Source: an uncultured bacterium (GTDB lineage: Bacteria; Oederibacteriota; PGYV01; CAWJRG01). From it: a stretch of 64,000 nt of DNA. The stretch is from contig CAWJRG010000010.1 of assembly GCA_963845185.1 (NCBI GenBank), positions 389,297 through 453,296 on the forward strand, in the 5' to 3' direction. Position numbers and translations under genes: made by a program. Each line of letters starts with the position of its first letter. Position 1 is the first letter of the stretch. A model generated the notes under the pieces. The model had not been told where the DNA came from, made no database searches, and saw only the letters and a list, made by a program, of their open reading frames with translations. Of this stretch, positions 23,145 to 48,919 are shown in pieces.

Positions 23145-23245
23145 TTTACGCCTCCGTTTCTACATAATTTTCAATGTCATTAATTCTCAATTGTCAATTA
23201 ACAGCCTTTCATTGAAAACTAATAATTCTTAATTAATAATTTCAC

Positions 23246-24037
23246 TCACTCTTCCCTTTTTTTCAGCATCATGTCGCTGTTTAATTCCTGCTTCAGCTTT
23301 TCCTCGTCGCCTTTTTCATTTGCCTTTATCTGGTTTATGAGCTCGTTTATTGACGCGAGCCTGATTTTCTCCTTTGCCGTGTCGCCCACCGGCCTCAACG
23401 AAAGGCTTATCCTGCCTTTTTCCCTGGCAAAAACCAGCAGTTCAGTCTCTTCAGGCGTGAGCGCGAGCGTCACCGCGCTGTAATTTGCTTCTTTTGACGC
23501 GCTTCCAGAAAAATCGTTGCCTGCCGCTATCACCCTCACCGCCTGCAGTATGGTGGCAGTGACCGTATAAACTTTTTTATTTTCGTTTATTTCGAAAGTA
23601 AGCACCACATCCACGTAATCGCCTGCTTTGACCATGTAGTCAACCAAGCTTTGCTCGTCCACTGCTATGCTCACGGCCCTCATGCCCGTGGGTATGGCCG
23701 TGTTTAATTTTTCCGCGCTTTCGGAAATCTTGTTCATCATTATGGGCTCTCCCTTGATGAAAGGCACCAGCGTGATTTTGTTTTTCGCCTTTTGAAAGTC
23801 AAGCACGTGCGCCGACGTGATGAAATTTTTCGGCATCTCCTTGTATTCGACATTTTCCCTTTTTATTTCAGCGTAAGCCGGGATGTAATCCGCTGCCACC
23901 AGCACCTTGACCGGCTCCATTTTCGACATGACGCTTTGTTCCATGCCTGTGATATAAAAATAACCCAGCCCAGCCGCTATCAATCCGGCTGTAACCGCTA
24001 TTAAAAAAAGCCTTCGTTCAGGTTTTTCGCTTGCCAT
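23246..24037 (-). CDS. cpaB: Flp pilus assembly protein CpaB/RcpC-like.
   Basis: N-terminal TM helix followed by a SAF/CpaB-like domain. Sits in the context of flp and tadE genes. Confidence 0.55.
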   Translation of the reverse strand: MASEKPERRLFLIAVTAGLIAAGLGYFYITGMEQSVMSKMEPVKVLVAADYIPAYAEIKRENVEYKEMPKNFITSAHVLDFQKAKNKITLVPFIKGEPIMMNKISESAEKLNTAIPTGMRAVSIAVDEQSLVDYMVKAGDYVDVVLTFEINENKKVYTVTATILQAVRVIAAGNDFSGSASKEANYSAVTLALTPEETELLVFAREKGRISLSLRPVGDTAKEKIRLASINELINQIKANEKGDEEKLKQELNSDMMLKKREE

Positions 24038-24061
24038 ATAAACCTCCTGTAAATTTTATTA

Positions 24062-25162
24062 TTACATTTTTATATTGTCTATTGCCGAAGCCGTTGACGG
24101 AATCAGGTTCACAACTTTTATAAGCAGCTGCGCCGCGGTATCTTCCGAGATATCCTCCATGCTGCCGGTCTCCTTGCATAAATCAATAAGCTTGCCGAAA
24201 GTATCTATGGTGCTGTTACCCTTGCCGAGCATTGAAATTATCTGCCTTACGCTGTCGAAATTTTCCAGGCTGTATTTGCCTTCCACCACGTCCTGCGCCG
24301 TGCTTATATCCTGGCTTGTAATGCCGTACTTTGACAGGGCTCCATTTCCTTTTTGGTCTATAAAACCCGCTATCTGGTCCTGGGCCACCTGCCCCTCGCT
24401 TGTCACAGCATCTATTTTATCCACAGCCCCGCCGATTTTCGATATGAAATCCGCGTTTGCGAGTATCATATTAAGGAATTTTTCCATTATATCGAGCATG
24501 CCGCTGCCCTGCTCGTCTCTGTTATTTTGGCCGTTGCCTGTAATATCGAGTTTGGAATTGATGTTTACCGGGTTTGGCGCGTTTCCTATGTTCAGGCTTC
24601 CGGGCATGTTCTTGTCCAGCCCCAGGCTGTTGTCGCTTAGCCCGAGTTTGGTATCGCTGCTCAGCAGGCTGTTGTTTTCTTCGGACAGCAGGTTCAGTTT
24701 GGCGGTATAACCTGAGCTTGCAGTAACCCCTGCGCCCGTATATGAAAAGTCATTGCCTGTGTTAAATTGGGTATAATTAAGCGCTGCTGCTCTCATTTCG
24801 TCTGTCATGCCTGTAAAATCCTGGTTGCTGGCCACTATTTTCCTGATTGCAGCGAAATATTGCTTTAAATCAATGTGATTAGGCGCGCCGGTTGCCTTTA
24901 AAATCTTCAAAATCATGCTTGCCACCCTTATTTTCTGGAGCCAGCCCTGGATCTGCCCTATAGGCAAAGTATTTTGTATTGCCCCGGTTATGTCCTGGCC
25001 TGCGGTTTTAATATCGCCAAAAACTCCGTTCGATACAAAAGGCGACATGACAAATTTCGCTATTATTTCGCCGTACGACATGTCTGCCGCGGCAAAACCG
25101 GCGCCGGCGGACAGGATAAGGCCGACTATAAAGGCCGCCTTCAGCCTATTATTGTGAGCCAT
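24062..25162 (-). CDS. Secreted hypothetical protein in the Tad cluster.
   Basis: Signal peptide; G/N/S-rich; 4-nt gap to cpaB-like gene. Confidence 0.4.
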   Translation of the reverse strand: MAHNNRLKAAFIVGLILSAGAGFAAADMSYGEIIAKFVMSPFVSNGVFGDIKTAGQDITGAIQNTLPIGQIQGWLQKIRVASMILKILKATGAPNHIDLKQYFAAIRKIVASNQDFTGMTDEMRAAALNYTQFNTGNDFSYTGAGVTASSGYTAKLNLLSEENNSLLSSDTKLGLSDNSLGLDKNMPGSLNIGNAPNPVNINSKLDITGNGQNNRDEQGSGMLDIMEKFLNMILANADFISKIGGAVDKIDAVTSEGQVAQDQIAGFIDQKGNGALSKYGITSQDISTAQDVVEGKYSLENFDSVRQIISMLGKGNSTIDTFGKLIDLCKETGSMEDISEDTAAQLLIKVVNLIPSTASAIDNIKM

Positions 25163-25872
25163 TGCTCCCCTCCGGAATAATAAATGTTGAAAAGGTATTG
25201 TTTTTTTGCTTTTTGTATCATGTAAGACACGCTGTCTTTTTCCTCTTTTTCGTACAAAATTTCCCAGCCCTGTTTCTTAAAAAAATCCCTGTAATAATCT
25301 TTTACCGCATTGCCTGAATAAGCCACCCTGTAAAAATTGCCGAAACCGGCGGTTTTGCCCGAAGAGAGCATTTCTATGCTTAAGATTTTTTCCGCGCCCG
25401 GAAAATGCGCAAGGCCGTCGTCAAAGCCCTTGAATTTATCCGGATTCATGCCGCCCCTGATTTTTACCTTCACCACTTCGGTTTTGCTTTTGCCGTTTAC
25501 AGCTGTTATTAAAGTCCCGTTGTTCTTTTCATCCCTGAAAAAAACATAGTCGTAATCGTAAACCGGCGTTTCCCTGCCGCTGTTTATAAAAAATTTCGCC
25601 ATGCTGTCAATGCCAGCGTTGTCTATCACAATATATTTTTTCTGCCGGGCCAGCGCAATGTAATACCCTATTATGTCGCCTGCGTCTTTGTCGCTTTCGT
25701 ACCGTGTGGCTTCCAGTTTCCTGTCATTTATTTTCATTTCTACCTGGTTTGTTTTCTTCGCGTTAAAATTATACTGCAGGGAGTCCGGTGTGCCCTCCAT
25801 TATGTCGAAAACGCCTGCGCAAGTCTGGCGGCAAAAGCATAAAAATAAAATTAAGGCGGCTATTTTCTTCAT
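25141..25872 (-). CDS. Secreted hypothetical protein in the Tad cluster.
   Basis: Signal peptide MKKIAALILFLCFC... Confidence 0.4.
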   Translation of the reverse strand: MKKIAALILFLCFCRQTCAGVFDIMEGTPDSLQYNFNAKKTNQVEMKINDRKLEATRYESDKDAGDIIGYYIALARQKKYIVIDNAGIDSMAKFFINSGRETPVYDYDYVFFRDEKNNGTLITAVNGKSKTEVVKVKIRGGMNPDKFKGFDDGLAHFPGAEKILSIEMLSSGKTAGFGNFYRVAYSGNAVKDYYRDFFKKQGWEILYEKEEKDSVSYMIQKAKKQYLFNIYYSGGEQWLTIIG

Positions 25873-26384
25873 TGTGTCCCCTCGCTGTACTGGCCCGTGT
25901 ATTCCTTGTCTAGTTTTATTGTATCAGTAACCTTAAAGGTAAAGCTTCCGCCGGTAGCTGTAAAAAGGCTTGTGCTTAAATCCAGTGCGCTTTTCCCCGT
26001 AATAACCGTGAACAGGTTAAAAAGTCCCTGCTTGTAATCAAGCTGCACATCCGTGCCGGTAAACTTTTTCAGAAGGTTCATTTGCCCCATTTGCCCGAAT
26101 CCCGCATCGCCCGACTGCTGGGTGCCCGAGTAAGTCACAGAAACCCCGTTGGCCATTCCCAGCTTTTTCCCCATCTCGTTTGCGAATGCCTGTATGTCGT
26201 TTCCCTGGTCAGCGTCCGACGCCACAAAAAGCATGGTTTCCCTCTCGAGCATCGCGAGCTGTATTTTTTTCATCAGGAGCACGGTAAACTGGAATATCGC
26301 AATAAAAAACAGGATAAGCAGCGGAAGGACTATTACCATCTCGGTCATCGCCTGCCCCTTATTGGACTTTAATATTTTTTTCAA
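25869..26384 (-). CDS. tadE: TadE-like pseudopilin.
   Basis: N-terminus MKKILKSNKGQAMTEMVIVLPLLILFFIAIFQF matches the TadE N-terminal motif. Confidence 0.6.
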   Translation of the reverse strand: MKKILKSNKGQAMTEMVIVLPLLILFFIAIFQFTVLLMKKIQLAMLERETMLFVASDADQGNDIQAFANEMGKKLGMANGVSVTYSGTQQSGDAGFGQMGQMNLLKKFTGTDVQLDYKQGLFNLFTVITGKSALDLSTSLFTATGGSFTFKVTDTIKLDKEYTGQYSEGTQ

Positions 26385-26440
26385 ACCATCCTCCTGAAAA
26401 TATTTTTGTTATATACCTGCAAACTTTTGCACGAAAATCT

Positions 26441-27475
26441 TTAGTGCAATAAAATGTCATTGCTTGCCTGGCCGGACAGGATATTTATATACTTTAAATA
26501 GTCTTTTAGTTTCGCAAGTGTCTGTAACTGCTGCATTTTTGGCAGCATAACATGCCTTATTTTAGGCGTATATCCGGCGCCGTTAATGTCCCATATTGAC
26601 ATTGACCCTCCGTCAATGGTCGTCATGGCTGTGCTCAGCAAAAAAGCAGGCTTGATTTCATTGCCCTTGTCGTCGGTTAAAAAGCCCGAGCTTAAAAGCT
26701 GTTTTACCCCGGTTTTAATTGAAACAACCTGCACTGTATGTATGCCTGTCTCTTCTATGGTAAGAGGTATTGATTTTGATTTCCGTTTTCTTTCCACTTT
26801 TCTTATTACATATCGCGGGCCGCCGTATACTTTTACGCCGTTGGTAGTACGGCATCCCGCATTGGTCTTCCAGCTTTTGCCGTTTTCAAGATGCACTTCG
26901 CTTTGATTAAAAGTATACCTTTTGCCGTCAACGTCGCTGTCAAAGTAATATGTCACTTCCTCGTTTTCCGTATCATCTATGTATCTCCGCTCAACGTTAA
27001 AAGAAGGGTTAAACCCCTGGTCGCTGAATTCTTCCGTATTGAAAAGCGGCACGTCAACAACCCCGTTTCTCATGCCGTTGCGCAAAACCAGCATTGCCGT
27101 CATCATGGCAGCCGGCTTTATTTTCCATTTTCCATAACCGCCTGTGCCGGCAAATACATCCTGGAGTTTTTGCACTATCTGCGGTATTTTTTCCGCCTCA
27201 GGCACTTCCAGAATCGTAAGTACTCCGGCCACTGCAGCTGAACACAGGAGTATCTTGTTGCTGAGGGAAAGTATGTTCAGACTCCTGGCGTACCATAACC
27301 CGGCTTCCATGGCGCCTGAGTCAGCTATATTTTGCATGTGTATTTTCTCGTAAATCAGATTGCCAGACTCTATGACCGCTATCGCGATTATAAAAAGCAC
27401 AACCAGCGCCACAAGCGCCGGCACGATAACCTGGCCCTTGTTCTTCGGCGACAATCTTATTTTAATCACGTTCAT
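26441..27475 (-). CDS. TadG-like (putative Flp pilus-assembly TadE/G-like) protein.
   Basis: N-terminal TM plus QNIADSGAMEAG motif of the Tad_N/TadG family. 344 aa. Confidence 0.5.
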   Translation of the reverse strand: MNVIKIRLSPKNKGQVIVPALVALVVLFIIAIAVIESGNLIYEKIHMQNIADSGAMEAGLWYARSLNILSLSNKILLCSAAVAGVLTILEVPEAEKIPQIVQKLQDVFAGTGGYGKWKIKPAAMMTAMLVLRNGMRNGVVDVPLFNTEEFSDQGFNPSFNVERRYIDDTENEEVTYYFDSDVDGKRYTFNQSEVHLENGKSWKTNAGCRTTNGVKVYGGPRYVIRKVERKRKSKSIPLTIEETGIHTVQVVSIKTGVKQLLSSGFLTDDKGNEIKPAFLLSTAMTTIDGGSMSIWDINGAGYTPKIRHVMLPKMQQLQTLAKLKDYLKYINILSGQASNDILLH

Positions 27476-28038
27476 AATCCCCAGAACCCGGGATGATACC
27501 TCATTACGGAACAGGCATTTATTGTGTAAACCGGAAAGCCGGATTCTGCCGCCAGGATATCTCCGGAATTTGAGGAACTTTTTTGAAATAGCCCGAAAAT
27601 TTTATTTACAAACGGCACTTTTAACGGCATGTCGTATGTTACGCTTACGGCTATAAACCTGCCTGCTGAACTCTTTATTGAATTGTCCCATCGCCAGCTT
27701 ACATTTGCGCCTTTGAATTTCCCGAGAAAAAATCCCTGCAGCGAATCAGCGCTCATTCCGGATAGAGTCGTCAGCATGCTGCCTGAAGGGTTGTTTGCCG
27801 CCGTCATCATGCCTTCCAGTATGCTGTCCGCTTTTGGCACCTGTGTGTATCTTTCAAGCGTATAAGTAGGATAGGCCACTGCCACTCTTGCGAGCATATA
27901 CGCGGAATACTGCAGCATCATTTTATTTATGAATATCATGGAAAGCTGCACTATCCCCAGCACAAGCAAAATGAAAACAGGCAGGATTAAGACAAACTCA
28001 ACCATGCTCTGGGCTTTTTTGCTTTTTATTAACTTCAA
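27472..28038 (-). CDS. tadE: TadE-like pseudopilin.
   Basis: MKLIKSKKAQSMVEFVLILPVFILLVLGIVQLS. Confidence 0.6.
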   Translation of the reverse strand: MKLIKSKKAQSMVEFVLILPVFILLVLGIVQLSMIFINKMMLQYSAYMLARVAVAYPTYTLERYTQVPKADSILEGMMTAANNPSGSMLTTLSGMSADSLQGFFLGKFKGANVSWRWDNSIKSSAGRFIAVSVTYDMPLKVPFVNKIFGLFQKSSSNSGDILAAESGFPVYTINACSVMRYHPGFWGL

Positions 28039-28111
28039 AAATTAACCTCCGGATAAAACAGCTAGGGGCAATACGCGAATTGCCCCTACTGCACTCTTTG
28101 TCCCTGGTTAT

Positions 28112-28300
28112 TTACTGCCCGGCTGTTCCGTTCTTTATTCCGTTATCTACCTGCGATCCCACCGCGTTGCCGGAGTTGCTGAAGGCGTCTTTTATTTTCC
28201 CGCCGAAGAGCTTGACTCCCGCGATAACAAGTATTGCAATCAGGGCAATTATCAAAATATACTCGGTCATTGCCTGTCCTTTCCTTTCGCTTATTTTCAT
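28112..28300 (-). CDS. flp: Flp/Fap family pilin.
   Basis: MKISERKGQAMTEYILIIALIAILVIAGV contains the G/XXXXEY Flp motif. 62 aa. Confidence 0.65.
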   Translation of the reverse strand: MKISERKGQAMTEYILIIALIAILVIAGVKLFGGKIKDAFSNSGNAVGSQVDNGIKNGTAGQ

Positions 28301-28315
28301 TTTCGCACCTCCCTT

Positions 28316-28480
28316 CTATGGTATTGGTAATGAAAATATGAAAACAAAGGTTTCAAAATACCTGGATAAAATAAAACGCCCAAACTGGATGCCCGCTATG
28401 CACATGATGCCTACAATAGCCGTCAGCAGCACGTATTCCGTGAACGCCTGTCCCCGCATACCCCGCAATAGTTTCCGCAT
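28316..28480 (-). CDS. flp: Second Flp-family pilin. Start uncertain: the ORF extends to 28603.
   Basis: MRKLLRGMRGQAFTEYVLLTAIVGIMCIAG. Confidence 0.5.
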   Translation of the reverse strand: MRKLLRGMRGQAFTEYVLLTAIVGIMCIAGIQFGRFILSRYFETFVFIFSLPIP

Positions 28481-29030
28481 TTTACCGCTCTTCAATGATT
28501 GTGATTTTTGAAATATTGTAGTTAGCGGGATTTTCGATATGCTTTTTTGCTTCAAAATGGGATTTCCAGGAATAAAGGTTGGAGAGTGCGCTTCCTTTCG
28601 CATTGTAATAAACGTTAGAAAGCGGCTTGCTTTGTGCTTGAAATACTAAAACTTTACGTTTTTCCCTCATATCTTTTCACACCTTTCGCGCCATAAAATA
28701 CCGGTTTTATTTAAAAAGTAATTTATTTGCTCCCTTTTTTATCATCTGCCCTTAATTTTAGGAAATATCCCGCGGGTTGTCAAGGATTATAATAAATAAT
28801 GCGGGGGGATTTTACCTTTTCTGCAGATTATCATTGTTATTATCCGTGTTTTCCATTGCGCCTATTTTTTCCAGCATTCGTGCCGCTTCGGTATTGCCGG
28901 CATCAATCGCAAATGCTTGTATTTTCTAAATAATGTTAACTAATATACATACCGTAATAAGTATTTTTGTCATAGTATTCTATATAAGAATAATTACTTA
29001 GAAAAGGAAAGGCTTCCCCCAGGTAGAGCG

Positions 29031-29591
29031 TTATTTAGTCTTTGAAGGTCCATAATTTAGGTCTTTAAGTTTGTGTATTCTGCTTAGTTTAAATAAACGT
29101 AAAAACCAATTACATGAGTAATATTTTTTCCCCGTAGTATCTTCTGCTTTAATTACTATATCATTAAAATTATAATTTTTAAGTAAATCATATGATTTTT
29201 TATATGTTATACCGTCATTAGGTAGAATTTGACGTAATCTATCAGCTTCATCTAGAGTTATTTTAATAAACTTAATGATTTTATCTATATTAATTAATAA
29301 ATAAACATCACTTATCTTTATTGGTTTGTTTCCTTTGTTTATAACAGAAACATTAAAAAATTTTTCGATTTTCCAATCTATTTTATTTTTATCATTAGAT
29401 ATAAATTCATTATCATTAAATAGATCATCATAGCTTCCTGTCGGTTCTTCATATATTTCTGATATTTTAATCTTAACAATTATTTTATTTTCCTTAAAAT
29501 GTCTAATTTCTTGATATAATGAAATAAATAAAGCTGACGCACTGGTAAACCCTGTCCAAAAAATAGGTTGTTTTAAAAAATTAAAATTCAT
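29031..29591 (-). CDS. Hypothetical membrane-anchored protein (N-terminal TM). Last gene of the island operon.
   Basis: AT-rich; 12-nt gap to upstream gene; N-terminal hydrophobic segment FWTGFTSASALFISLY. Confidence 0.45.
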   Translation of the reverse strand: MNFNFLKQPIFWTGFTSASALFISLYQEIRHFKENKIIVKIKISEIYEEPTGSYDDLFNDNEFISNDKNKIDWKIEKFFNVSVINKGNKPIKISDVYLLINIDKIIKFIKITLDEADRLRQILPNDGITYKKSYDLLKNYNFNDIVIKAEDTTGKKYYSCNWFLRLFKLSRIHKLKDLNYGPSKTK

Positions 29592-29603
29592 TTTAACGAT
29601 TCC

Positions 29604-29870
29604 TCAACGCTTCAATAGCACAACAATTATAGCGGTTATTGCGCTTATAACTGAAGCTATTGCCGATACTAAAGTAATTATCCAAAGTTTAGATTCTCTT
29701 AATGACCTTTCAGCTTCAATTACACGTCTCTGAATTTCAGCATCATCAGCATTACACGGAATGCTTTCCTGAGAAACAGAACCCATAGTATTTACTCCTA
29801 ACTCAATTGCGCGTTTTTTTAATTCATCACCAACTAATAATTTTTTCATAATTATCTCCTTATAAATCAA
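29604..29870 (-). CDS. Small protein with C-terminal TM helix.
   Basis: 88 aa; C-terminus LWIITLVSAIASVISAITAIIVVLL. Confidence 0.4.
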   Translation of the reverse strand: MIYKEIIMKKLLVGDELKKRAIELGVNTMGSVSQESIPCNADDAEIQRRVIEAERSLRESKLWIITLVSAIASVISAITAIIVVLLKR

Positions 29871-29884
29871 AAATTCTCTTCGAT

Positions 29885-30103
29885 TCAGATTAAAAAATCA
29901 TTAAAAAAAGAAGCCGGATTTCTAACTAAAATTTTAGGATTTTGAAACATATATTTGATATCGTCTATAACTTCGTAAAGCTCGCCCAATTCATTGTTTT
30001 TATAAGCGGCAACGTATACCTTCATATAAAAAGTTTTCTCCTGGGCGTGGTGCTCGGGCCCGAACAGGGAAATGATAAAGCCTTTAAACTGGTCCACGGT
30101 CAT
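29885..30103 (-). CDS. Small hypothetical protein (72 aa).
   Basis: Tightly packed between flanking operon genes; AT-rich. Confidence 0.35.
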   Translation of the reverse strand: MTVDQFKGFIISLFGPEHHAQEKTFYMKVYVAAYKNNELGELYEVIDDIKYMFQNPKILVRNPASFFNDFLI

Positions 30104-30122
30104 TTGCGGTTTGTATCACCTA

Positions 30123-31115
30123 TTAAGTTTTTTTAGTACTTATCAGGTCCGGGTCAAAACTACTTTGTTCATTAAGTTTTTTAAAAGCTTCTACATCAAA
30201 AGTTTTTTTGGTAATACTATCAACAGTTTTGATTTCTTTTGTAGTTTGAACAGGAGCTTTTATCCACCCTTGAAATTGAGGGTTGTTTTCATATTCCTTT
30301 AATATAGTTAGTATTTTAAATTTAAGTCCATCAATATTTGAAAAATATGCACATAATTTACTATCCAAAAGTTTCTTTTTAAAGTTTTTATACAATTTTA
30401 CATTGTCTTTTTCTTCAAAATCTTTGTTTTCCGAAGTTTTTATAGCTACATACTCTTTATCCATTAATAACGTAAAAGGCTTTTTCTTTAATTTTTTTGC
30501 ATAATTATATTCTAATTCAACATAGCTTCGGCCATGTCGTTTATAAATGCTTCCATATCTTCCTCCAACAATTAACATAAATGTATCAGAATCTTGAATC
30601 CATTTCTGTATTGTTTTCCATTGTGATTCATCATTTGCTGTAAATAGTTCCATGCCGGCAGGTATATGACCCGCTTGTAAAACAGCTCCTACGGCTGCTT
30701 GTCGCTCGGCTTCCATTAATTTATAAGTAGAAGATATAAAGACTTGTATTTTTTTCTTTTGATTTTGAAGCACCCTTATTTCTTTCTTTTCTACTTGCCG
30801 GTCTATATCTAAAGGTTCTTCATTAAAATCATCTTTTGCAGATTTCAATATTTCAATGCCTTTTTTTGTATCACCAACTTTATTTTCTTTAACATTAAAA
30901 TCAAACTCTTTTAGAAAGACATTATTTGATTTAAATAGGCGCTGTAAAAATAATTTTACTTCAACTTTCCATTTACAAAAAAATACACTTTGTACTGTAT
31001 AATCATTTTTTGTTGTATCAATGCCAATTATTAAAGGTTGTTTTTTAGTTTCTAATAGCAAAATTCCGCGAGTAATAAGTGAATCAAACCTATCGTTAAT
31101 CCTATTTTTATCCAT
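30123..31115 (-). CDS. DUF4062-like domain protein with unknown N- and C-terminal regions. Candidate defence-system component.
   Basis: Central segment VFISSTYKLMEAERQAAVGAVLQAGHIPAGMELFTANDESQWKTIQKWIQDSDTFMLIVGGRYGS matches the DUF4062 signature as I recall it (VFISST..DL.eER...AGH.P..ME.F ... RYGS). 28-nt gap to the RM gene. Confidence 0.5.
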   Translation of the reverse strand: MDKNRINDRFDSLITRGILLLETKKQPLIIGIDTTKNDYTVQSVFFCKWKVEVKLFLQRLFKSNNVFLKEFDFNVKENKVGDTKKGIEILKSAKDDFNEEPLDIDRQVEKKEIRVLQNQKKKIQVFISSTYKLMEAERQAAVGAVLQAGHIPAGMELFTANDESQWKTIQKWIQDSDTFMLIVGGRYGSIYKRHGRSYVELEYNYAKKLKKKPFTLLMDKEYVAIKTSENKDFEEKDNVKLYKNFKKKLLDSKLCAYFSNIDGLKFKILTILKEYENNPQFQGWIKAPVQTTKEIKTVDSITKKTFDVEAFKKLNEQSSFDPDLISTKKT

Positions 31116-31143
31116 GTATTTTCTTTTCCTTTTCCTTTAAAAT

Positions 31144-34077
31144 TTATTCTAACGATTCCTCAACGATTTTTATTTCTTCTTTATCTGAAATTTCGTAAAG
31201 TTCATAAATTTTTCGGTCAATCTCTTTATCAACAGCTTGTATTTCATTTTCTCTATTCGATTTAGATTCATTTAATGACAATATTTTTTCTACCAAACTA
31301 ATAATTTCAACAACTAAATCTTTATTGGTATTATTTAATTTAATTATTGGTATTTGTTCAATACTTTCAGGATAAACATTTAAATTATAACCTAGAAAAT
31401 TATTAAAATAGAAGTTTATTAGTTTTGAATTAATTAATCCTAACAAGAATTTAAGTGAATATTCCCTTGAAAGTTCTATATCGTTTTTTTCAATATTTAT
31501 TTTTCTTTTACCTAAAAAAGATTTATCTTTATTTTCAATATTATATTTTAGGATTACACAACTTAATGAGTCATCTGAATAGTATTTTTTATTATCATAA
31601 ACAGCTTTAATACCTTCTACACCTGTAACTTTTGAAATAAAAATTTTTTCTGATTCAAATAATTCCTCGAAAGCTGGCCTATATAATTTTGTTTTATCAT
31701 ATAACAACCATTTATCCGCCCAATCAAGTTTATATCTACTTATATTTTTACCTTTAATCATTTTTTTACAAAAATCATTTATTTTATTATCCAAATGAAA
31801 TTGTTCTACTGGAACCCCTCGAGCTCCCCATGAAGCTATAGCTACTTTCCCCAAATTAATACTATTCTCTTTTATTTTATTAATAATACCAATTGTTTTT
31901 TTAGAAAAAGCGTCTATTCGATACATATTTTCCGGAATTTCATAGAATTCTTTTTGTTTAATTTTATCAGTTTTATTGCCGTCATATACGGAAATGATAT
32001 TGCCATTTCTTTGCGCCTGGTCAGAACACTTTTCAATTATTAAAACAATATTTTTAACAGCAACGCCTTCAAATACATTTGTTTTAAATAAATTATAAAT
32101 ATTTATTATTTTACAGTTATCTAAAATGTATTTACGTAATTTTTGGCCATAATCTTGAGTAAGAAATGGGTAAGGTATAATAAAGCCCAATAAACCGCCT
32201 TCTTTAAGTAGCAATATAGATTTTTCAATGAAAGCTATATATATATCAAATCTTTTTAGCGAAGTTTCGTAAAATTTCATATAAAAAGCAAGTTCTTCAT
32301 CTTCAAGATTTTCAACGTTAATATATGGCGGATTTCCTATAATAAAATCAAAGCCATTATCACTAAGTGCTTCACAAAAGGAAATCTCAAAATTAAAAGG
32401 TCTAATTTTTTCAATGTCTTTGAAATTTTCCTTTAACAGATTCCGGGAATTAATTTTTAATTGTTCTTCCAAAACAAGTATTTTTTTATAAAGTTTTTCC
32501 TTTACTTCATCATCTGTGGTTTTATGAAAATGTTTTTTTAATTCTAATATGTCATTTATAAGTTCTTTACTATTAGAATTGGAGCTAAGCAAAGTTGTTT
32601 CTTTAATTACTTCTTCTGAAATTAATGAATTTCCACAACGAATATTTAATTTCATATTAGGCAATAATTTTTTCCCTTTTATATTTTGATACTTAATTCC
32701 TTCTAAGGTTTTAATTACTAAATTCAGTTTTGAAATTTCAACAGCTCTTTCATCTAAATCAACGCCATAAATATTGTTTTGTAATATTTTTTTTCTTAAA
32801 TCGAAATCAAATAACAATGTTCCTCCAGCAATCCGCCTATAATGAAAGAGTAATTCTTCAAATACCTTTATAAGGAAAGAACCACTACCGCAAGCAGGGT
32901 CTAATACTTTTATCTTTTTAAGATCCTCTTCAGTCTTAATTTTTGATAGTTTGGGTCTAATGGTATTTTCAATTATGTATTGAACGATGCTTTCGGGTGT
33001 GTAATAAATACCTTGTTTTTTCTTTTTCTTTTTACCTTCTTCTTCGTCTAAAGATATACTTTTTTTACTTTTTTTAAGCAATTCACCTAAATAATTTTCG
33101 TAAACTTCACCAATGATATTTACAGATAATTTTGAGAAATTAATAGAAGCTAGTTCTCGAATTATTGGAATAATAATAGCATCGTCAAGGTCAAGTTTAG
33201 TACATTCATCTATAGCAAAAATTTCCGAATTAAAACGCTCATCCATTTCTTTAAAAACAATATTTTTTAATTCGTCATATATGTTTTTCTTTGAGTGTAA
33301 TATTGCGTGTAGTTTGTCTTGCCCAATTATTTGATTGTCGGAACAGTAATCAATAAAAATAAGCTTATCTATAATTTTTTGTACAATTAATTCAATCTGC
33401 GTGGAGTTATAATGTTTTGAATATTTTTTTAAAATATATGTGCGTAATTGTTCTCTCCAATTTTTAAGTTTTATAAAAAAATCATTCTTAATTTCTTCTT
33501 GTTCAGGATAATATACAGAATTTAAGTCCCAACGCCCTTGTTCCTTAATTAGATTTTTTTTCGTTAATTTTGATAAAAACTCAATGCCTTGAGGTGATAA
33601 TATATTGATATAATTTTTTTTATCTACCTTATCCCATAGAATTGAATGAAAAGCATATTTTGTATCATTATAAAGTCTTTTCAAATGTGTATTGAAAACA
33701 CGCCATTCAATAAAATTTGTAAGAATACCCCAGTAAATACCTTCTGCTTCACAGTAACTATAAAGTTGTTCTGCATACGTTGTATCTTGATTAGTTCCAT
33801 TAAGTTTATCACTTTTAGAAGCGTCTTTCGTTTCAATAACTTGTATAGTATTGCCTTCATCGTCTTTTAATAAAATATCCGGTCTTTTACCAGTTTTGAC
33901 TTCTTGTCCTTCATTAATGAAAATATTATTTTTTTCCCAGCCTAAAATTTTTAGTAAATCCAAAAGATAATTTGCTTGAATATTTTCTTCTGAGGATTCA
34001 ACGGCATTATTTTCTTTAAAATCATTTAATAATTTTTCAATTTTTTGTTTAGTTATTTTCAAAATTTTATTATTCAT
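31144..34077 (-). CDS. Type IIG restriction-modification enzyme: single-chain PD-ExK endonuclease plus N6-adenine gamma-class methyltransferase plus target-recognition domain (TRD).
   Basis: 977 aa. N-terminus RPDILLKDDEGNTIQVIETKD (PD...ExK). Motif I VLDPACGSGSFL. Motif IV FIIGNPPYINV. Long C-terminal TRD. About 28% GC. Confidence 0.7.
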   Translation of the reverse strand: MNNKILKITKQKIEKLLNDFKENNAVESSEENIQANYLLDLLKILGWEKNNIFINEGQEVKTGKRPDILLKDDEGNTIQVIETKDASKSDKLNGTNQDTTYAEQLYSYCEAEGIYWGILTNFIEWRVFNTHLKRLYNDTKYAFHSILWDKVDKKNYINILSPQGIEFLSKLTKKNLIKEQGRWDLNSVYYPEQEEIKNDFFIKLKNWREQLRTYILKKYSKHYNSTQIELIVQKIIDKLIFIDYCSDNQIIGQDKLHAILHSKKNIYDELKNIVFKEMDERFNSEIFAIDECTKLDLDDAIIIPIIRELASINFSKLSVNIIGEVYENYLGELLKKSKKSISLDEEEGKKKKKKQGIYYTPESIVQYIIENTIRPKLSKIKTEEDLKKIKVLDPACGSGSFLIKVFEELLFHYRRIAGGTLLFDFDLRKKILQNNIYGVDLDERAVEISKLNLVIKTLEGIKYQNIKGKKLLPNMKLNIRCGNSLISEEVIKETTLLSSNSNSKELINDILELKKHFHKTTDDEVKEKLYKKILVLEEQLKINSRNLLKENFKDIEKIRPFNFEISFCEALSDNGFDFIIGNPPYINVENLEDEELAFYMKFYETSLKRFDIYIAFIEKSILLLKEGGLLGFIIPYPFLTQDYGQKLRKYILDNCKIINIYNLFKTNVFEGVAVKNIVLIIEKCSDQAQRNGNIISVYDGNKTDKIKQKEFYEIPENMYRIDAFSKKTIGIINKIKENSINLGKVAIASWGARGVPVEQFHLDNKINDFCKKMIKGKNISRYKLDWADKWLLYDKTKLYRPAFEELFESEKIFISKVTGVEGIKAVYDNKKYYSDDSLSCVILKYNIENKDKSFLGKRKINIEKNDIELSREYSLKFLLGLINSKLINFYFNNFLGYNLNVYPESIEQIPIIKLNNTNKDLVVEIISLVEKILSLNESKSNRENEIQAVDKEIDRKIYELYEISDKEEIKIVEESLE

Positions 34078-34251
34078 TAATCCTCCTTCAAATTGTCTTA
34101 CTTTACCACTTTTCTATTATTTTCTCAATTATTTTCGAGAGGCAAATAAAAAAAAGGCTTCGAGGTGTATAAAATTATTCATCTTTGACTTGTCTTAATA
34201 TCCCTTAAATTTTTATCTTTAATTGCGACATTTATGTTATATAGGTTATAT

Positions 34252-34653
34252 TTATTTAATTTTTTTCCCAGGTCGCCATGTAGTTTCTTTAACAAGCTTG
34301 CCATGCTTCCACTTTATTAAGCTAACAATTCCGGTACTGCTATCAAAATCCAATTCCCAACCATCTTTAACACCTTCAACATACGGAACAATTTTATCTA
34401 TCAATCCGCTAAAATCTTTATGGATTTCACCTTCGGTTGTATCATCCGGATTCAATCCATCAAAAATATTCCAGAGGTCTGAATTAACTTCACTATTTTT
34501 TGTTTCACGTCGTTGTTGTTGTTTTAGTTGCTGCTGTTGCTCATTATCTTGCTGATACCCCAGCAAAAAAAGTGCAGTCGCGTCATTAGAGTAGGCAAGA
34601 TAACTTGAGGATAAAAATATAATTATCATTAATAGTTTTAAATAAATTTTCAT
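34252..34653 (-). CDS. Small secreted hypothetical protein with a poly-Gln stretch.
   Basis: Signal peptide MKIYLKLLMIIIFLSSSYLAYS; QQDNEQQQQLKQQQ. Confidence 0.4.
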   Translation of the reverse strand: MKIYLKLLMIIIFLSSSYLAYSNDATALFLLGYQQDNEQQQQLKQQQRRETKNSEVNSDLWNIFDGLNPDDTTEGEIHKDFSGLIDKIVPYVEGVKDGWELDFDSSTGIVSLIKWKHGKLVKETTWRPGKKIK

Positions 34654-34933
34654 TTTTCCCTCCTGATTAAAAATTGCATTTTATATTTATATAATATATC
34701 TGAATATGTTTTAAACCATATTCACGAAGTTATTTATCACCTCTTAATATAAAATACACCCCAAAATAAAAAAGTCAATAGGATATAATAAAAAAGGGCT
34801 CCGTGTTTGTTAGGTGTGCAAATGATATAGAGGGTATATCAAAAGGTGTGAACGGAGCCCTTTGTAATTTTCATTTGTAAACCAACTTAATATCTTTGTC
34901 AATAATAAATTCTTTACACCTTTTTTTACGGGA

Positions 34934-36823
34934 TCATTTAGACTGCTCCTGCGTAGGTTCTTCCATACCTTCGGGCGGTGCCACGGTTGACTTTAACTCT
35001 TCAATCTTCGCTTTTATCTCCTTGTCGCCCGGGTTCATTTTAGAATACTTTTCATCGAACTCTACCGCACCCGTATAATCACCCAGATTCTCTTCGCATT
35101 CTCCCATATACTTGTAAATTTCCGCCTGGTCTCCGTGTTGCTCCCTGGTTTTTTCAAGCCACATAAACGCGCTTGCGTTGTCCCCTTGTGCGAAATATTG
35201 CATTGCATTTTTCCACTCACTGCTCTCATTATACGGGCCGCGCGCTATGACAGCGGGTTTGGTTGTATTATTGTCCGCGCCGGGCGCTATGGCAATTTGC
35301 TTCTGCGCTTTCAAGGAATATGCATTATTGATGTGCATAGCATGTACTATCTTCTTCATGCCAAGCCGCAGGACAAAGGCGCCTGCTACAACAGCAACAG
35401 CCATGGCTATAAGTATTGTGTTTCGCGCGATGGCAGAGCCATTCGGAATTTGGGATTTGGCATTTAGCATTCCAGAGCTTTCAACCTCTTGAATTTCTTG
35501 AGCTTTTGAACCTTGAGCATTGAGCTCTTGAACCTTTTCTTCATCCTTTTGCGCATTTGAACTTTGATCCTGCGCTTGCTTTCTGCGGGTGTACAGGCCG
35601 TATAAAAACACGGCAACTGATTTCAATATTTTGCCGGAAAAAGTCTTTGGCGTGTGGCCCGAGGCGGCGGTCAAAATATTTTTAACAAGGTCAAGGGAAT
35701 TCAATTTGGGATTTTCAGAGTTTGGGATTTGGAATTTACTTACCATACCCTCACTTTGAACCCCTTGAGCTTTTGAACCTTGAACCTCTCCTTCCACCTC
35801 TTCCCGGAGCGCCTCAGCCTCTTGTTGCCTTTTGGCATCCTTATCCGCTTTGCCAATAGCGATATCATATATAGAGGGCAGTTCGTTCTCAAATTCGTTA
35901 GCGTCGCCGGCCTGTCCCGGCCTCTCCTTTAGTTCCAGCCTTTTTAATCCAGCCATAGCGCTGTAAAACGCCATAAGCGCCTCAGGCTCGGACAGGTTCA
36001 TTATTACCTGGTACCCATGGGGCTTCATGCGCACCTGTATGTTTTTCGGGGCCTTAGACCAACGCCCGGCGTTTGGGTCATTCGGGTCAAACCTCTGGTT
36101 CTTTGCCCCTTTAACCTTTGAGGTCTTTCCGTCAGCCGGGAATGTCTCAGGAGCATTGCCTTTATTTACCCATTCTACCAGTTTCTCTGCCTGCTTAACC
36201 GTCATTTTGCGGTCAAACACGACCTTTAAAGCCTGTTCGACTGTATCCTGGTCATTTGGTTGTCCTTTGGCAAGGGCTGTCAACATCATTACAACGGCCA
36301 CCGGCAGCTGCCAGTCTTTGGATTTTACCGAATTTCGGTAAATCATTTCCTGTGCTGATTTATTCAATATTGACAAGGCTTTTATGGCATTACTTACCTC
36401 TTGTTGGCTGAGTGCAACTCTATCAGCTATCTGTATTTGGGTCAGGTCAGGGTGTTTTTCCATGTAATCGGCAATATACCTGTACTTGTCCAGCCAGTGG
36501 TATGGCTCCCCATTATTGTTCATGAATCCCTTCAGGGAAAAGTCCTCCCTGCCACCCGTAAATACTTCAGCCTCTATCTCGGTCCAGCCAAGTTTCATGG
36601 CTGCCCGCAGGCGCCTCTCGCCCTCAAAAAGCTCGTACCCGGCAAGCTCTTTGCCGGTGCACCCCTGCGAGGCTGTGTCCTGGGCGGTCAGTTCGCGGAC
36701 TTTCACGGATTCGAGCTGGCCGTTTGCCTTCATGGACGCAGCAAGGCTGTCAATACCGTCGGGGTTGATAAAATGCCTGGGATTTTCGGGATTAAAGCGG
36801 ATTTTTGAGATTTGAATTTTCAT
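34934..36823 (-). CDS. ParB/Srx N-terminal-domain protein with internal imperfect repeats, a TM helix and a C-terminal TPR-like region.
   Basis: KIQISKIRFNPENPRHF ... YELFEGERRLRAAMKLGWTEIEAEVF (GERRxRA ParB box). TM helix NTILIAMAVAVVAGAFVLRL. Repeats KAQGVQSEGMVSKFQIPNS and KAQEIQEVESSGMLNAKSQIPNGS. Confidence 0.6.
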   Translation of the reverse strand: MKIQISKIRFNPENPRHFINPDGIDSLAASMKANGQLESVKVRELTAQDTASQGCTGKELAGYELFEGERRLRAAMKLGWTEIEAEVFTGGREDFSLKGFMNNNGEPYHWLDKYRYIADYMEKHPDLTQIQIADRVALSQQEVSNAIKALSILNKSAQEMIYRNSVKSKDWQLPVAVVMMLTALAKGQPNDQDTVEQALKVVFDRKMTVKQAEKLVEWVNKGNAPETFPADGKTSKVKGAKNQRFDPNDPNAGRWSKAPKNIQVRMKPHGYQVIMNLSEPEALMAFYSAMAGLKRLELKERPGQAGDANEFENELPSIYDIAIGKADKDAKRQQEAEALREEVEGEVQGSKAQGVQSEGMVSKFQIPNSENPKLNSLDLVKNILTAASGHTPKTFSGKILKSVAVFLYGLYTRRKQAQDQSSNAQKDEEKVQELNAQGSKAQEIQEVESSGMLNAKSQIPNGSAIARNTILIAMAVAVVAGAFVLRLGMKKIVHAMHINNAYSLKAQKQIAIAPGADNNTTKPAVIARGPYNESSEWKNAMQYFAQGDNASAFMWLEKTREQHGDQAEIYKYMGECEENLGDYTGAVEFDEKYSKMNPGDKEIKAKIEELKSTVAPPEGMEEPTQEQSK

Positions 36824-37131: not shown

Positions 37132-39276
37132 TTACTGTTGAATAATTATTTGCTCATTTTTGATGGTTATATTATTTATTTTATATAAATCAGTACTTAC
37201 AACGCCTTCGTCAAAGAGCGAGTTATATTCATTCAATCTGTTATCAACAATTATACCCGGCAAAGGAAAACCATTAATTTTATAGTAAGTATATTTAAAA
37301 CGCGGCTCATTGTTTATATCAAGATATGGTTTTACAGCATATTCATAAGTTTTATTTTTTCTTATGCCGCTATAAACAATATTTCCTTTTTCAAATCGAA
37401 TTACAGGATTTTCAATCTTATTTACCCTGTATCGGATAAATGTTGAAAAAATCTTAAAATTATTATCATTTAATTTCATTCCATAATTTTTACTAAATTT
37501 TTCAAAATCATTTTGACTTATTATCAGTTCGTTTACTTCAACTGCATCAAAAGTGGACAATTCCATGTTACCGTTAAACATTGTAAATCCGGCATTTTTG
37601 ACATTTAAATCTATTTTACTTATCCGGAATATTTGTTCATTTTTATTAAATTTATTTCCTATTATGCACCCGTCTGATACAAGCCTAATATCTGTTCCGC
37701 TCTGGTTTTGACTTACTGCCTTAACATTTACCCCTTTGATAAATGGAAACATTCTCTTGAATACTATATTAGCTTCTTCCTTATTCACAAACCTGTTTTG
37801 CCTTTTAAAAATAAACGCATTTGTTCCATCAGGAAGCGGATACTTTGCCATTTTCTTGAAACCGGTATACTTGCCCGATAATAGTAAATCTGTTATTTTT
37901 TTTCGTTCATCAAATCTTCCGGATTCAAGCCCGTTATCTTTGTCTTTTATCAGGACATAATCTGTAAAATAAGGAAATTTATCGCTTTCAGTAACAGCAA
38001 TGTTGTATTTACCGCTTAGCACTTTAAACCCCATTGTGTAATTATTTATATAACAAAAATCCGGCATAACACATAAACGGGTTTTGCCTTTTGAATCAGA
38101 CTTAACGTCGGAAAGCATTTGTTCAATTTTCCAATCAGATTCTGATGGCCATATTTTTATAGGCCAGTTTTGAATAATATTAAAATTACTTACAATGTAT
38201 ATTGCCATGGACAAAACAACTACAGTTGTCGTAGTAATTATGCCTGCGATTTTGTTTTTTATTATATAAATCAAATAAGACGTCAATATTGCCGCAAAAG
38301 GCAGAATTGGCATCAAATATCTGCCTTGCTTGTTTTTTATTAGAAAAAAAATTGTAAGCGGCACAATAACATACATCACGTACTTCCTGTTTTTTTCATC
38401 CAAAATCATGATAACAATTGCTGCCATCAATAAAAAAATAAATATTGGATTCATAGAACCGGCCAGTGCCTGAAAACAGAGTGCCAAACTCTTTAAAGAT
38501 AATACAGGAGGCGCGTTTTGTAAGTCAGCTCCGCTATATGCTGCAAATTTTAATATGTCATATGCAGTGAACCCGTTCTCGATATACCATGCACCGCATA
38601 TAAGTATTGAGGAAACAGCAAAAATAGCTAGATTTTTCAGCCTGTCCCCCATCTTCTCCCTGTTGAATACCTGCAATTCCAATATTAATGGGGTTATTGC
38701 ATAAATAATAAATGTCCATTTTGTAAGCATTCCAATTCCGGCTGTTATACCCGCAAGAAAAGAACAGACACCCGATTTAAAATTTTCAGTTCTTAATATG
38801 AGATAAATATATATGGCTGTAACTGAAGCCAGCGGAACGTCAAGCATAAAATAATGTCCTTCGGTAATTAATGCCGGATATGCCGCTGCTATTGACGCTG
38901 CGGCAATAGCGCTTTTAAACCCAAAAATCCGCCTGGTAAAAAGAAATACTCCTGTTATTAACAGTAATTGAAATAAAATAATTATATATGTAAACCCGTC
39001 TTCGTTGCTTCCAAATACCCGCGCTGAAACCGAACCAGCTATCGGAACAAACGGCGGATAATAGCGGTTTATTGATAAAAAAGCGTCCGGAAAATCGCGC
39101 GGCTTGGTTATGCGGAATTGCTCAGCATTTTTAAGATGCAATGATTCATCCCATCGTTGCGGGGTATTATCCATCCTTAGCCATAAGACATTAGATATTG
39201 CAATAAATATAAGTAATGAAACCAAAATAGAAATTTTTATTATTGTTAAATTATTTCCTATTTTTAATTCGGGCAT
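37132..39276 (-). CDS. GT-C fold glycosyltransferase of the GT39/GT83 (PMT/ArnT-like) family. Polytopic membrane protein.
   Basis: Start MPELKIGNN at 39276 (GGAGG RBS). More than 10 predicted TM helices. DE motif (RWDESLHL) in the first loop. Large C-terminal soluble domain. Confidence 0.6.
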   Translation of the reverse strand: MPELKIGNNLTIIKISILVSLLIFIAISNVLWLRMDNTPQRWDESLHLKNAEQFRITKPRDFPDAFLSINRYYPPFVPIAGSVSARVFGSNEDGFTYIIILFQLLLITGVFLFTRRIFGFKSAIAAASIAAAYPALITEGHYFMLDVPLASVTAIYIYLILRTENFKSGVCSFLAGITAGIGMLTKWTFIIYAITPLILELQVFNREKMGDRLKNLAIFAVSSILICGAWYIENGFTAYDILKFAAYSGADLQNAPPVLSLKSLALCFQALAGSMNPIFIFLLMAAIVIMILDEKNRKYVMYVIVPLTIFFLIKNKQGRYLMPILPFAAILTSYLIYIIKNKIAGIITTTTVVVLSMAIYIVSNFNIIQNWPIKIWPSESDWKIEQMLSDVKSDSKGKTRLCVMPDFCYINNYTMGFKVLSGKYNIAVTESDKFPYFTDYVLIKDKDNGLESGRFDERKKITDLLLSGKYTGFKKMAKYPLPDGTNAFIFKRQNRFVNKEEANIVFKRMFPFIKGVNVKAVSQNQSGTDIRLVSDGCIIGNKFNKNEQIFRISKIDLNVKNAGFTMFNGNMELSTFDAVEVNELIISQNDFEKFSKNYGMKLNDNNFKIFSTFIRYRVNKIENPVIRFEKGNIVYSGIRKNKTYEYAVKPYLDINNEPRFKYTYYKINGFPLPGIIVDNRLNEYNSLFDEGVVSTDLYKINNITIKNEQIIIQQ

Positions 39277-39413
39277 TTCAATTCCTCCGTTGTGCAATAT
39301 ATACCTTGGATATAAAACTGTTCTTATTTCAAACAGTTTATCACAAATTATTTTGCGGGTTGCAGCAAATTAGACCTTGTTTTTTGCAGAACCTCGTCAA
39401 TCGAAGTTTACAA

Positions 39414-48819: not shown

Positions 48820-48919
48820 TCTTTCCCCTTTCTTTTATCTAACCTGCCCCTATTTTATCACCTTAAATTTTAATGGCAAACCAAATAATTGATATATATC
48901 TTTGCTTTATCAGTTTATG

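Follow-up and report, generated by a model that had tools for sequence, protein, structure and literature searches.

An AT-rich, probably composite defence island between a ParB-like gene and the flp/tad cluster of an uncultured bacterium

We examined a 64,000-nucleotide stretch of DNA from an uncultured bacterium of the GTDB lineage Oederibacteriota (contig CAWJRG010000010.1 of assembly GCA_963845185.1, positions 389,297 to 453,296; hereafter, the window), in which an AT-rich block separates a gene for a ParB-like protein from the flp/tad gene cluster. All genes of the block are on the minus strand, and in that direction they encode a 133-amino-acid (aa) protein, a Type IIG restriction-modification (RM) enzyme, a DUF4062 protein, and three further small proteins of 72, 88, and 186 aa. 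The Type IIG enzyme is intact, the DUF4062 protein keeps all of the conserved residues, and both genes stand behind one conserved promoter. These two genes, which belong to unrelated systems, lie 28 bp apart, as is expected of a defence island. Based on fine-scale composition and conserved flanking signals, we place the AT-rich island at ~28,935 to 34,785 (5.9 kb; 27.0% guanine plus cytosine [GC]) and conclude that it is probably a compositionally foreign, composite defence island set between the ParB-like terminator and the flp/tad promoter.

The segment from 28700 to 34900, which a preliminary description of this DNA had singled out, has a GC content of 27.5%, compared with 43.9% for the whole window in a sliding profile. 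Across 453 other 6.2-kb windows, none of which overlaps this segment, the mean was 45.9% (standard deviation [sd], 2.6%; minimum, 37.5%), which puts the island ~7 sd under the mean and confirms the sharp AT-rich block beside flp. The contrast with the flanks also stands, although these are at 46 to 48% GC rather than the ~50% first given (45.7% for the Tad flank, 22383 to 28603, and 48.3% for the ParB-like gene). The drop is strongest at third codon positions, where GC (GC3) is 13 to 27% for the six island genes with one exception, the 72-aa open reading frame (ORF), at 44%; the adjoining flp/tad and ParB-like genes are at 46 to 57%. Karlin dinucleotide distances to the rest of the window (delta* x1000) are 132 to 162 for the island and 31 to 126 elsewhere in the window. 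The two compositional checks that had been proposed, sliding GC and a k-mer signature (here of dinucleotides), both found a nonuniform composition with its extreme over the island.

On the left, the limit of the island is set by the promoter-like site of the flp genes, TTGACA-17-TAAAAT (28783->28755), which in our reading resembles the sequence upstream of flp2 in a relative, L035; blastn similarity between the window and L035 stops at 28474. Beyond this site the Flp pilin genes flp2 (28316 to 28483) and flp1 (28112 to 28300), both on the minus strand, head a tad cluster that extends down to 22383. On the right, the limit is the terminator-like hairpin of the ParB-like gene (34787 to 34869), which we count as host-side. 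Since the source is evidently a metagenome-assembled genome (MAG) and the composition changes abruptly, the block could in principle be an assembly or binning artefact that joins the DNA of two organisms. However, the Logan assembly of run ERR10755942 contains a contig of 11,739 bp that covers both junctions and matches window positions 23723 to 35461 at 99.99% identity, and the island is therefore not an assembly chimera. Related loci also repeat the order of ParB-like gene, hairpin, promoter, and AT-rich block, and we regard an artefact as hardly credible.

Two minor features lie near the left limit. Between the flp promoter and the island, positions 28800 to 28930 form a patch of 45% GC whose minus strand would encode a sequence ending in ...KIQAFAIDAGNTEAARMLEKIGAMENTDNNNDNLQKR and a stop codon. 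The translation looks like the C-terminus of a helical-repeat protein, perhaps left over from a host gene that was disrupted; it had no match among the window proteins or the ParB-like proteins. Within the flp leader, a 62-aa ORF (28482 to 28670, minus strand) ends where flp2 begins and is called as a gene in the Logan assembly. Neither L034 nor L035 has a homologue, no family matches it, and it is probably not a gene.

The Type IIG RM enzyme named in the preliminary description is encoded at 31144 to 34077 (minus strand, 977 aa), and we consider the assignment firm, with predicted nuclease, methyltransferase, and target-recognition functions in one polypeptide. The single ORF is matched by the Pfam families Eco57I (8.5e-38), N6_Mtase (1.9e-24), MmeI_Mtase, and TaqI_C (2.7e-12), the last of which marks the target-recognition domain at residues 772 to 911. 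It is also matched by PADLOC REase_MTase_IIG (2.6e-80 for residues 9 to 511 and 4.7e-52 for residues 543 to 974), the two models jointly spanning residues 9 to 974. An N-terminal PD-(D/E)xK nuclease (PD at 66 to 67, E82-T-K84) was assigned from the motif pattern together with a weak HSDR_N_2 match (E = 0.0012). This motif is intact, as are motif I (DPACGSG at 393) and motif IV (NPPY at 582) of a gamma-class N6-adenine methyltransferase. In combining these three parts in a single chain, the enzyme resembles the Eco57I/MmeI-like members of Type IIG; it differs in having no companion methyltransferase gene and in that its closest homologue is only 61% identical. The methyltransferase core has some resemblance to the BREX protein PglX, but identity as PglX was rejected on the score (NF033452, 129 bits against a cut-off of 500), and other BREX genes are absent from the island.

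Full-length homologues of the Type IIG enzyme number in the thousands, with alignment coverage of 97 to 100%. The closest, P0142 (L030, 10001 to 12940, on contig DHPI01000077.1 of GCA_002407865.1), is the product of a gene of 26% GC in a genome of 51% GC; a tyrosine integrase gene lies 250 bp upstream of it, and directly after its stop codon GC is back at the host level. Remoter homologues, at 37 to 47% identity, come from groups as scattered as Patescibacteria, Brachyspira, Leptospira, Edwardsbacteria, and TA06, and a search of viral contigs for relatives of the enzyme found none.

In front of the Type IIG gene lies a conserved 66-bp segment made up of a promoter and 5' untranslated region (UTR) (34076 to 34141, minus strand). 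It contains a sigma-70-like site with a TG extension (TTGAGA-17-TGgTAAAGT, 34128->34100), followed by AAGGAGG and the ATG. From the Type IIG gene to the 186-aa ORF, the gaps between genes are 12 to 28 bp, suggesting one transcription unit. Judging from this arrangement, these genes probably form a single minus-strand unit driven by the promoter at 34141 to 34076.

The second defence gene (30123 to 31115, minus strand) encodes a 330-aa homologue of the DUF4062 TIR-like NADases of the Swarozyc/Evangelion family, recognized through PF13271 and the structure of KpSwz. PF13271 matches residues 124 to 206 (3e-27; 95 bits against a cut-off of 24.7), and the solved KpSwz chain (PDB 10wc/11cq/11cv) aligns over residues 121 to 289 with an E value of 3.9e-19. 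The catalytic residue E97 of KpSwz (chain index 82) aligns to E200 of the window protein, provided that the deposited chain starts at residue 16. In an alignment of 13 DUF4062 sequences, F126, E156, Q165, W172, Y198, E202, and G283-W284 are invariant, Y203 is nearly so, and E200 is present. Over residues 116 to 317, the protein is ~36% identical to the product of a DUF4062 gene on Staphylococcus aureus plasmids of ~20.6 kb, which we infer to be of the pMW2/Eva01 type; an offset of 115 maps Eva01 onto the window protein (F11 = F126, W51 = W166, and E87-Y88 = E202-Y203). The closer relatives (45 to 51% identity) are Bacillus/Paenibacillus-type proteins and not Eva01, and 214 plasmids and 294 IMG/VR contigs carry homologues of DUF4062. 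An AlphaFold2 model shows a confident core at residues 120 to 285 with beta-alpha repeats, the block means of the predicted local distance difference test (pLDDT) being mostly 85 to 96. Foldseek matches in the PDB include the TIR domains of RRS1, TcpB/BtpA, SPARTA, and SARM1 as well as the NDT-like proteins DNPH1/BcmB; all are weak (~1e-3 to 1e-2), and other flavodoxin-like folds are interspersed with them.

Two preprints from 2026 show by experiment that DUF4062 proteins are antiphage TIR-like NADases, which strengthens the earlier reading of the locus as a defence island. In this family, defence works through NAD+ depletion and abortive infection and needs both the catalytic Glu and AUX. The Swarozyc protein KpSwz depletes NAD+ and causes abortive infection. 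It is activated by the phage portal via a C-terminal helix-turn-helix (HTH)/winged-helix AUX domain, E97 and AUX both being required; more than half of bacterial Swarozyc homologues adjoin another defence system, and some DUF4062 proteins are found in operons with other enzymes (Osinski et al., bioRxiv 10.64898/2026.05.01.722283). Evangelion Eva01, carried by the S. aureus plasmid pMw2, is a single-gene defence that requires F11, E87, W162, and AUX (Ibarra-Chavez et al., bioRxiv 10.64898/2026.06.25.731849).

The window protein shares with Swarozyc a core and stalk that align to KpSwz and a gene position beside another defence system, and it shares with Evangelion the motifs that correspond at the offset given above. 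Its domain layout is different. KpSwz consists of an N-terminal DUF4062 domain and a portal-binding C-terminal AUX, and in 106 of the 120 closest homologues DUF4062 likewise comes first, with a coiled coil and an AUX of ~100 aa at the C-terminus. In contrast, the window protein opens with an extension (residues 1 to 118), continues with the conserved core and helical stalk (120 to 285), and stops ~45 residues past the GW motif with no C-terminal AUX domain. The extension has no detectable homologue, including among 79 DUF4062 loci in viral contigs and in the loci L028 (Flavobacterium rakeshii) and L029. No AUX remnant was found downstream of the gene, where the single significant match falls inside the core domain. 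Eva01 differs further in that its AUX region cannot be aligned with the window protein, which has the N-terminal extension instead, and in its location on an antimicrobial resistance plasmid, whereas the window gene is chromosomal in an uncultured lineage. Judged by its sequence, then, the window protein is a member of the DUF4062 family and not a canonical Swarozyc or Eva01.

The remaining island genes are small. The 133-aa ORF (34252 to 34653, minus strand) follows the ParB-like terminator and precedes the conserved island promoter; in L120, one of the related loci described below, nothing stands at this place. It forms a singleton cluster, and its signal-peptide-like hydrophobic N-terminus (residues 1 to 21, MKIYLKLLMIIIFLSSSYLAYS/ND) agrees with the small secreted protein proposed earlier. 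The 72-aa ORF (29885 to 30103, minus strand), whose GC3 of 44% is atypical for the island, is a real gene, since a homologue (66% aa identity; 82% DNA identity over 136 bp) was found in the AT-rich block that follows the ParB-like gene of L120; that block has no DUF4062 gene. Next to it, the 88-aa ORF (29604 to 29870, minus strand; 81 aa if read from the ATG at 29849) has one C-terminal hydrophobic segment and is predicted to encode a tail-anchored membrane protein. The 186-aa ORF (29031 to 29591, minus strand) has the lowest GC of any island gene (22.5%, with a GC3 of 13%). A search of 1.84 billion representative proteins returned the 186-aa protein itself and two marginal matches, making it an ORFan, and it had no match in plasmid or phage records. 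Neither did the 72-aa ORF, and the 133-aa ORF had no plasmid match. For all four ORFs, nothing significant was found in PADLOC, PHROGs, NCBIfam, or Pfam; matches to CRASP-2 and HSDR_N fell under the cut-off and were discarded.

Part of this gene set is bracketed by a 32-nt direct repeat. One copy (31137 to 31168) lies at the junction of the Type IIG and DUF4062 genes and supplies the Type IIG stop codon; the other (29581 to 29612) lies at the junction of the 88-aa and 186-aa ORFs and supplies the start codon of the latter. The copies are identical at 29 of 32 positions, compared with 26 of 32 for the best repeat in 100 shuffles, and they enclose a 1,556-bp cassette of the DUF4062, 72-aa, and 88-aa ORFs, which suggests that the cassette was inserted or exchanged as a unit. 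Such a grouping could also point to a multigene system of the DUF4062 protein with the 72-aa, tail-anchored 81/88-aa, and 186-aa proteins, in which the TIR-like enzyme would either produce a nucleotide signal for a membrane effector, after the manner of Thoeris or CBASS, or itself be sensed or regulated. The ORFs are packed with gaps of 12 to 19 bp, one downstream protein has a clear membrane anchor, the DUF4062 protein is without the canonical sensor AUX, and the Swarozyc preprint cited above describes operons of DUF4062 proteins with other enzymes. We nevertheless consider this improbable. No homologue of the small ORFs occurs at ~81 other DUF4062 loci, comprising the 79 viral-contig loci together with L028 and L029; in the last two the DUF4062 gene stands alone, and the proteins there also have long N-terminal extensions. 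Moreover, the 72-aa gene recurs in L120 without a DUF4062 gene, and no credible homologue of the 186-aa protein exists among the proteins searched. The small ORFs of 133, 72, 81/88, and 186 aa are thus neighbours of DUF4062 rather than its conserved partners. Of the "DUF4062-like operon" in the preliminary description, the DUF4062 protein is upheld and a conserved multigene operon is not.

Adjoining the island on the right is the ParB-like gene (34934 to 36823, minus strand; 629 aa; 48% GC), whose product comprises ParB_N with a GERRxRA box, an HTH, a linker, a putative membrane segment (hydrophobic, assigned by inspection only), and a tetratricopeptide repeat (TPR) region. It has 14 matches in 5.8 billion proteins. 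A first contig scan with the protein found no relative, and a second, based on an alignment, brought up relatives of at most 38% identity; five of the 14 (L003, L004, L119, L120, and L121) were taken with their gene context. In the window and at all five relatives (genes of 47 to 50% GC), an AT-rich block lies within 4 kb on the 3' side, with a minimum 1-kb GC of 0.22 to 0.32. The background frequency of such a block in those sequences is 0.26 to 0.37, so that six of six has a probability of ~1e-3, with the proviso that the loci may not be independent.

The AT-rich blocks of three of the five relatives carry defence or toxin-antitoxin genes, and the cargo differs at each locus, as do the 5' neighbourhoods. 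L004 has Vsr, a Dcm methyltransferase, and unknowns in or beside its block, and L121 has MazE/PIN, a 591-aa SIR2_2 protein, and RelB/ParE. L119 has AbiEi/AbiEii upstream and DUF5677 and unknowns downstream; L120 has four small unknown ORFs and lies beside dnaA-dnaN-gyrA. The ParB-like genes themselves are mosaic. The window gene is 85 to 88% identical to that of L004 in the first 400 nt and 30 to 60% identical elsewhere, and it is 78 to 85% identical to those of L003 and L119 at nt 700 to 900, a pattern that suggests gene conversion among paralogues. Aligned 3' flanks of the ParB-like genes of the window, L004, and L003 had no common att-like sequence. Genes for AAA_14/DUF4143 ATPases were also seen near ParB-like genes, directly upstream in L121 (8502 to 9686) and ~5 kb downstream in L119 (16500 to 17822); the one in the window (14097 to 15332) is ~20 kb from the ParB-like gene.

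A common scaffold surrounds this variable cargo. Just 3' of the ParB-like gene of the window, on the minus strand, is the terminator-like hairpin, GGGCUCCG ... CGGAGCCC, with an internal stem-loop and then a U-run. The form GGGCTCCG...CGGAGCCC is common to the window and L120 (11905 to 11976), with folding z-scores of -5.7 and -6.0, respectively, and the pattern was seen in 0 of 100 shuffles. The hairpin probably terminates transcription of the ParB-like gene, and it may also be a landmark for recombination. In addition to the hairpin, the window and L120 have in common the 72-aa gene and the 66-bp promoter/5'UTR, which is 83% identical to the head of the L120 block (11986 to 12051). In L121 (14392 to 14424), the promoter head is 91% identical over 33 bp, so that it precedes the first cargo gene in three AT-rich blocks linked to ParB-like genes; it is absent upstream of the closest Type IIG homologue (L030 to L033).

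Behind the promoter, L120 has a 33-codon ORF (12053 to 12151; LDKEQTNKINKLVYQLYEIMPDERTIIGDFFK, then a stop codon) that matches the extreme C-terminus of Type IIG family proteins. Its best score was 38.8 bits, whereas 50 shuffles reached at most 32 bits, and the top matches were nearly all C-terminal; most likely, this ORF is the scar of a deleted Type IIG gene. A still shorter relic, LDKEQANL followed by a stop codon, was noted in L121. Because the promoter, the 72-aa gene, and a Type IIG remnant recur at the ParB-like loci of relatives, the locus appears to be variable and cassette exchanging and not the site of a one-off insertion. Its conserved anchor is the ParB-like gene on the right and not flp. 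The preliminary description was right that the island lies beside flp; a single insertion there describes it less well.

The position of the AT-rich blocks raises the question of how they arrived. One answer is a degraded integrative element whose integrase was lost or acts in trans and whose target was the ParB-like gene, at its 3' end or terminator, as other islands target tRNA genes. This would specify the route of arrival and is compatible with a composite defence island. Between the window and L120, DNA identity is 73 to 83% over the hairpin, the promoter, and the last ~50 to 100 nt of the ParB-like gene, whereas the rest of the two genes is mostly at 30 to 67%, with the exception of one 82% block near nucleotide 900. 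The closest Type IIG homologue directly adjoins a tyrosine integrase, and all six ParB-like loci have the AT-rich block on the 3' side. However, there is no integrase gene or fragment in or beside the island and no direct repeat of the ParB-like 3' end at the flp end. The only boundary repeats, a 19-nt direct repeat (28650/34644, 84%) and a 28-nt inverted repeat (28732/34771, 75%), were rejected as att sites, as they resemble ~60 other repeats in this AT-rich sequence and overlap ribosome-binding-site or terminator sequence. The mosaicism along the whole length of the ParB-like genes is also better explained by gene conversion among paralogues than by att duplication, and we consider an integrative element of this kind unlikely. 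The search for integrase or att remnants that had been proposed found none flanking the island within the window.

Presence varies among relatives: the island is absent from L035, other cargo is carried by L004, L119, L120, and L121, and parts of the island recur in L120 and L121. L035 was obtained by a metagenome scan with the TadE-like protein, and its Tad proteins are 38 to 82% identical to those of the window, with the order flp2-flp1-tadE... kept. Upstream of flp, it has radical-SAM, PAP2, GNAT, and glycosyltransferase genes at normal GC, with no island and no ParB-like gene; the other side is rearranged, hence the exact empty site is not definable there. The island proteins are singletons at 90% identity, while the flanking CpaB has close relatives. 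Taken with the codon use, which is unlike that of the host, the genomic context of P0142, and the occurrence of DUF4062 genes on plasmids and IMG/VR contigs, the absence from L035 indirectly supports the horizontal acquisition proposed in the preliminary description. The locus thus has the deviant composition and the variable presence among relatives of a classical genomic island. The marks of an integrase-mediated island (integrase, tRNA/att site, and flanking repeats) were not found; the whole window has no tRNA or tmRNA, and a scan of the island ORFs and of the main ORFs in the rest of the window showed no integrase.

Alternatively, the locus could be old, variable, and vertically inherited rather than acquired, with its content changed by deletion and its AT richness due to mutation bias or to selection, for example, on promoters, for silencing, or for Lys/Asn/Ile-rich proteins. 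The promoter, 72-aa gene, and Type IIG remnant held in common with L120 have diverged about as far as the core Tad genes of the window and L035, and the window has further AT-rich patches at 37.1 to 39.3, 40.9 to 42.4, and 47.9 to 49.7 kb. A GC3 of 13 to 27% next to flanks of 46 to 57% would, however, be hard to sustain vertically. The singleton status of the island proteins beside a CpaB with close relatives, the wholly different cargo of the ParB-like loci, and the patchy distribution of both defence families over phyla, plasmids, and viral contigs also speak against vertical descent, as does the occurrence of the same type of Type IIG enzyme as an AT-rich gene in an unrelated genome of 51% GC. 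On balance, we judge this explanation to be quite unlikely.

Several observations nevertheless weigh against an acquired and functional defence island. Integrase, transposase, tRNA, and flanking repeats above chance are all absent at the island ends, and the nearest mobile-element gene, of the IS110 family, is 21 kb away. The case for a foreign origin draws on composition, patchy distribution, and comparisons at ~40 to 80% aa identity. The similarity between part of the island scaffold and L120 (82% at the DNA level) equals that between the core Tad genes and L035, and long residence is therefore possible instead of recent acquisition. As for function, the N-terminal extension of the DUF4062 protein is modelled at a pLDDT of <50 and has no homologues, and the AUX of the characterized proteins is missing; without this essential domain, the protein could be nonfunctional.

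If the composite defence island is active, protection would come in two layers. In the first, the Type IIG enzyme would protect host DNA by N6-methylation of adenine within the recognition site, while unmodified incoming DNA would be cut near that site by the N-terminal PD-ExK nuclease. In the second, a phage cue would activate the DUF4062 protein, and the resulting hydrolysis of NAD+ would abort the infected cell. Because the C-terminal AUX/sensor of the characterized proteins is missing, phage sensing would most likely reside in the 118-aa N-terminal extension, a placement that is speculative. The island itself would have been built by gain and loss of cassettes, not by one integrase-mediated event, as one instance of the variable AT-rich blocks found 3' of ParB-like genes in this lineage.

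In content, this is a small defence island of two already described families, Type IIG RM enzymes and the DUF4062 TIR-like NADases characterized in 2026, and it adds an uncultured lineage to the range of both systems. For one flank gene, the nearest named relatives are in MAGs of candidate division FCPU426, at only 38% aa identity. Like other defence islands and hotspots linked to an anchor gene, it has two unrelated adjoining defence systems, a foreign composition, and different cargo in relatives. Unlike them, it has an anchor that belongs to a recombining, mosaic ParB-like family whose genomic position varies, and a common hairpin and promoter head before the variable cargo, with no integrase or tRNA. 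A literature search by title and abstract gave no match for ParB-like anchors of defence islands.

The pairing of ParB-like genes with AT-rich blocks at six of six loci, with a common hairpin and promoter, points to a lineage-specific platform for the exchange of defence cassettes without a visible integrase. If confirmed on complete genomes, such a ParB-like-linked platform would be a new way of organizing defence islands. More tentatively, and with considerable doubt, an undescribed kind of locus may be made up of the hairpin, the promoter head, and a gene of the Noc-like family (ParB_N with a GERR box, HTH, putative membrane segment, and TPR) and may swap AT-rich cassettes of Type IIG RM, DUF4062, Vsr/Dcm RM, SIR2, and toxin-antitoxin genes. 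The ParB-like protein would then act as a recombination anchor or as a factor that tethers foreign AT-rich DNA to the membrane or silences it. A second, smaller novelty would be a DUF4062 NADase with an N-terminal sensor or with a sensor provided by the small downstream membrane proteins; its inverted arrangement relative to proteins with a C-terminal AUX makes it a natural test of how such NADases are activated. Most worth following are the pairing of ParB-like genes with AT-rich blocks and the inverted architecture of the DUF4062 protein.

Outside the island, the window contains two features related to mobile elements. An IS110-family transposase gene (DEDD_Tnp_IS110 and Transposase_20; 55954 to 57003, minus strand) is the only transposase or integrase gene among the scanned window ORFs. 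At gathering thresholds, Rfam matched only a group II intron in the whole window, ~13 kb from the island. Its domains lie within ~570 nt at 15669 to 16238 (minus strand; D1-D4 with 139 and 53 bits, D5-D6 with 44 bits), and no reverse-transcriptase ORF was identified nearby, the adjacent 411-aa ORF being an AAA_14/DUF4143 ATPase. By its sequence, the element looks like an ORF-less group II intron.

Further AT-rich genes (31 to 37% GC; GC3, 24 to 41%) were observed at 37132 to 39297, 40877 to 42397, 47881 to 49741, and 20667 to 21473. Most of them are within a polysaccharide-biosynthesis cluster and encode two PMT_2-type glycosyltransferases, an epimerase, and an unknown protein; the ORF at 20667 to 21473, likewise an unknown, lies outside that cluster. 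The whole region from 28 to 50 kb is a compositional mosaic.

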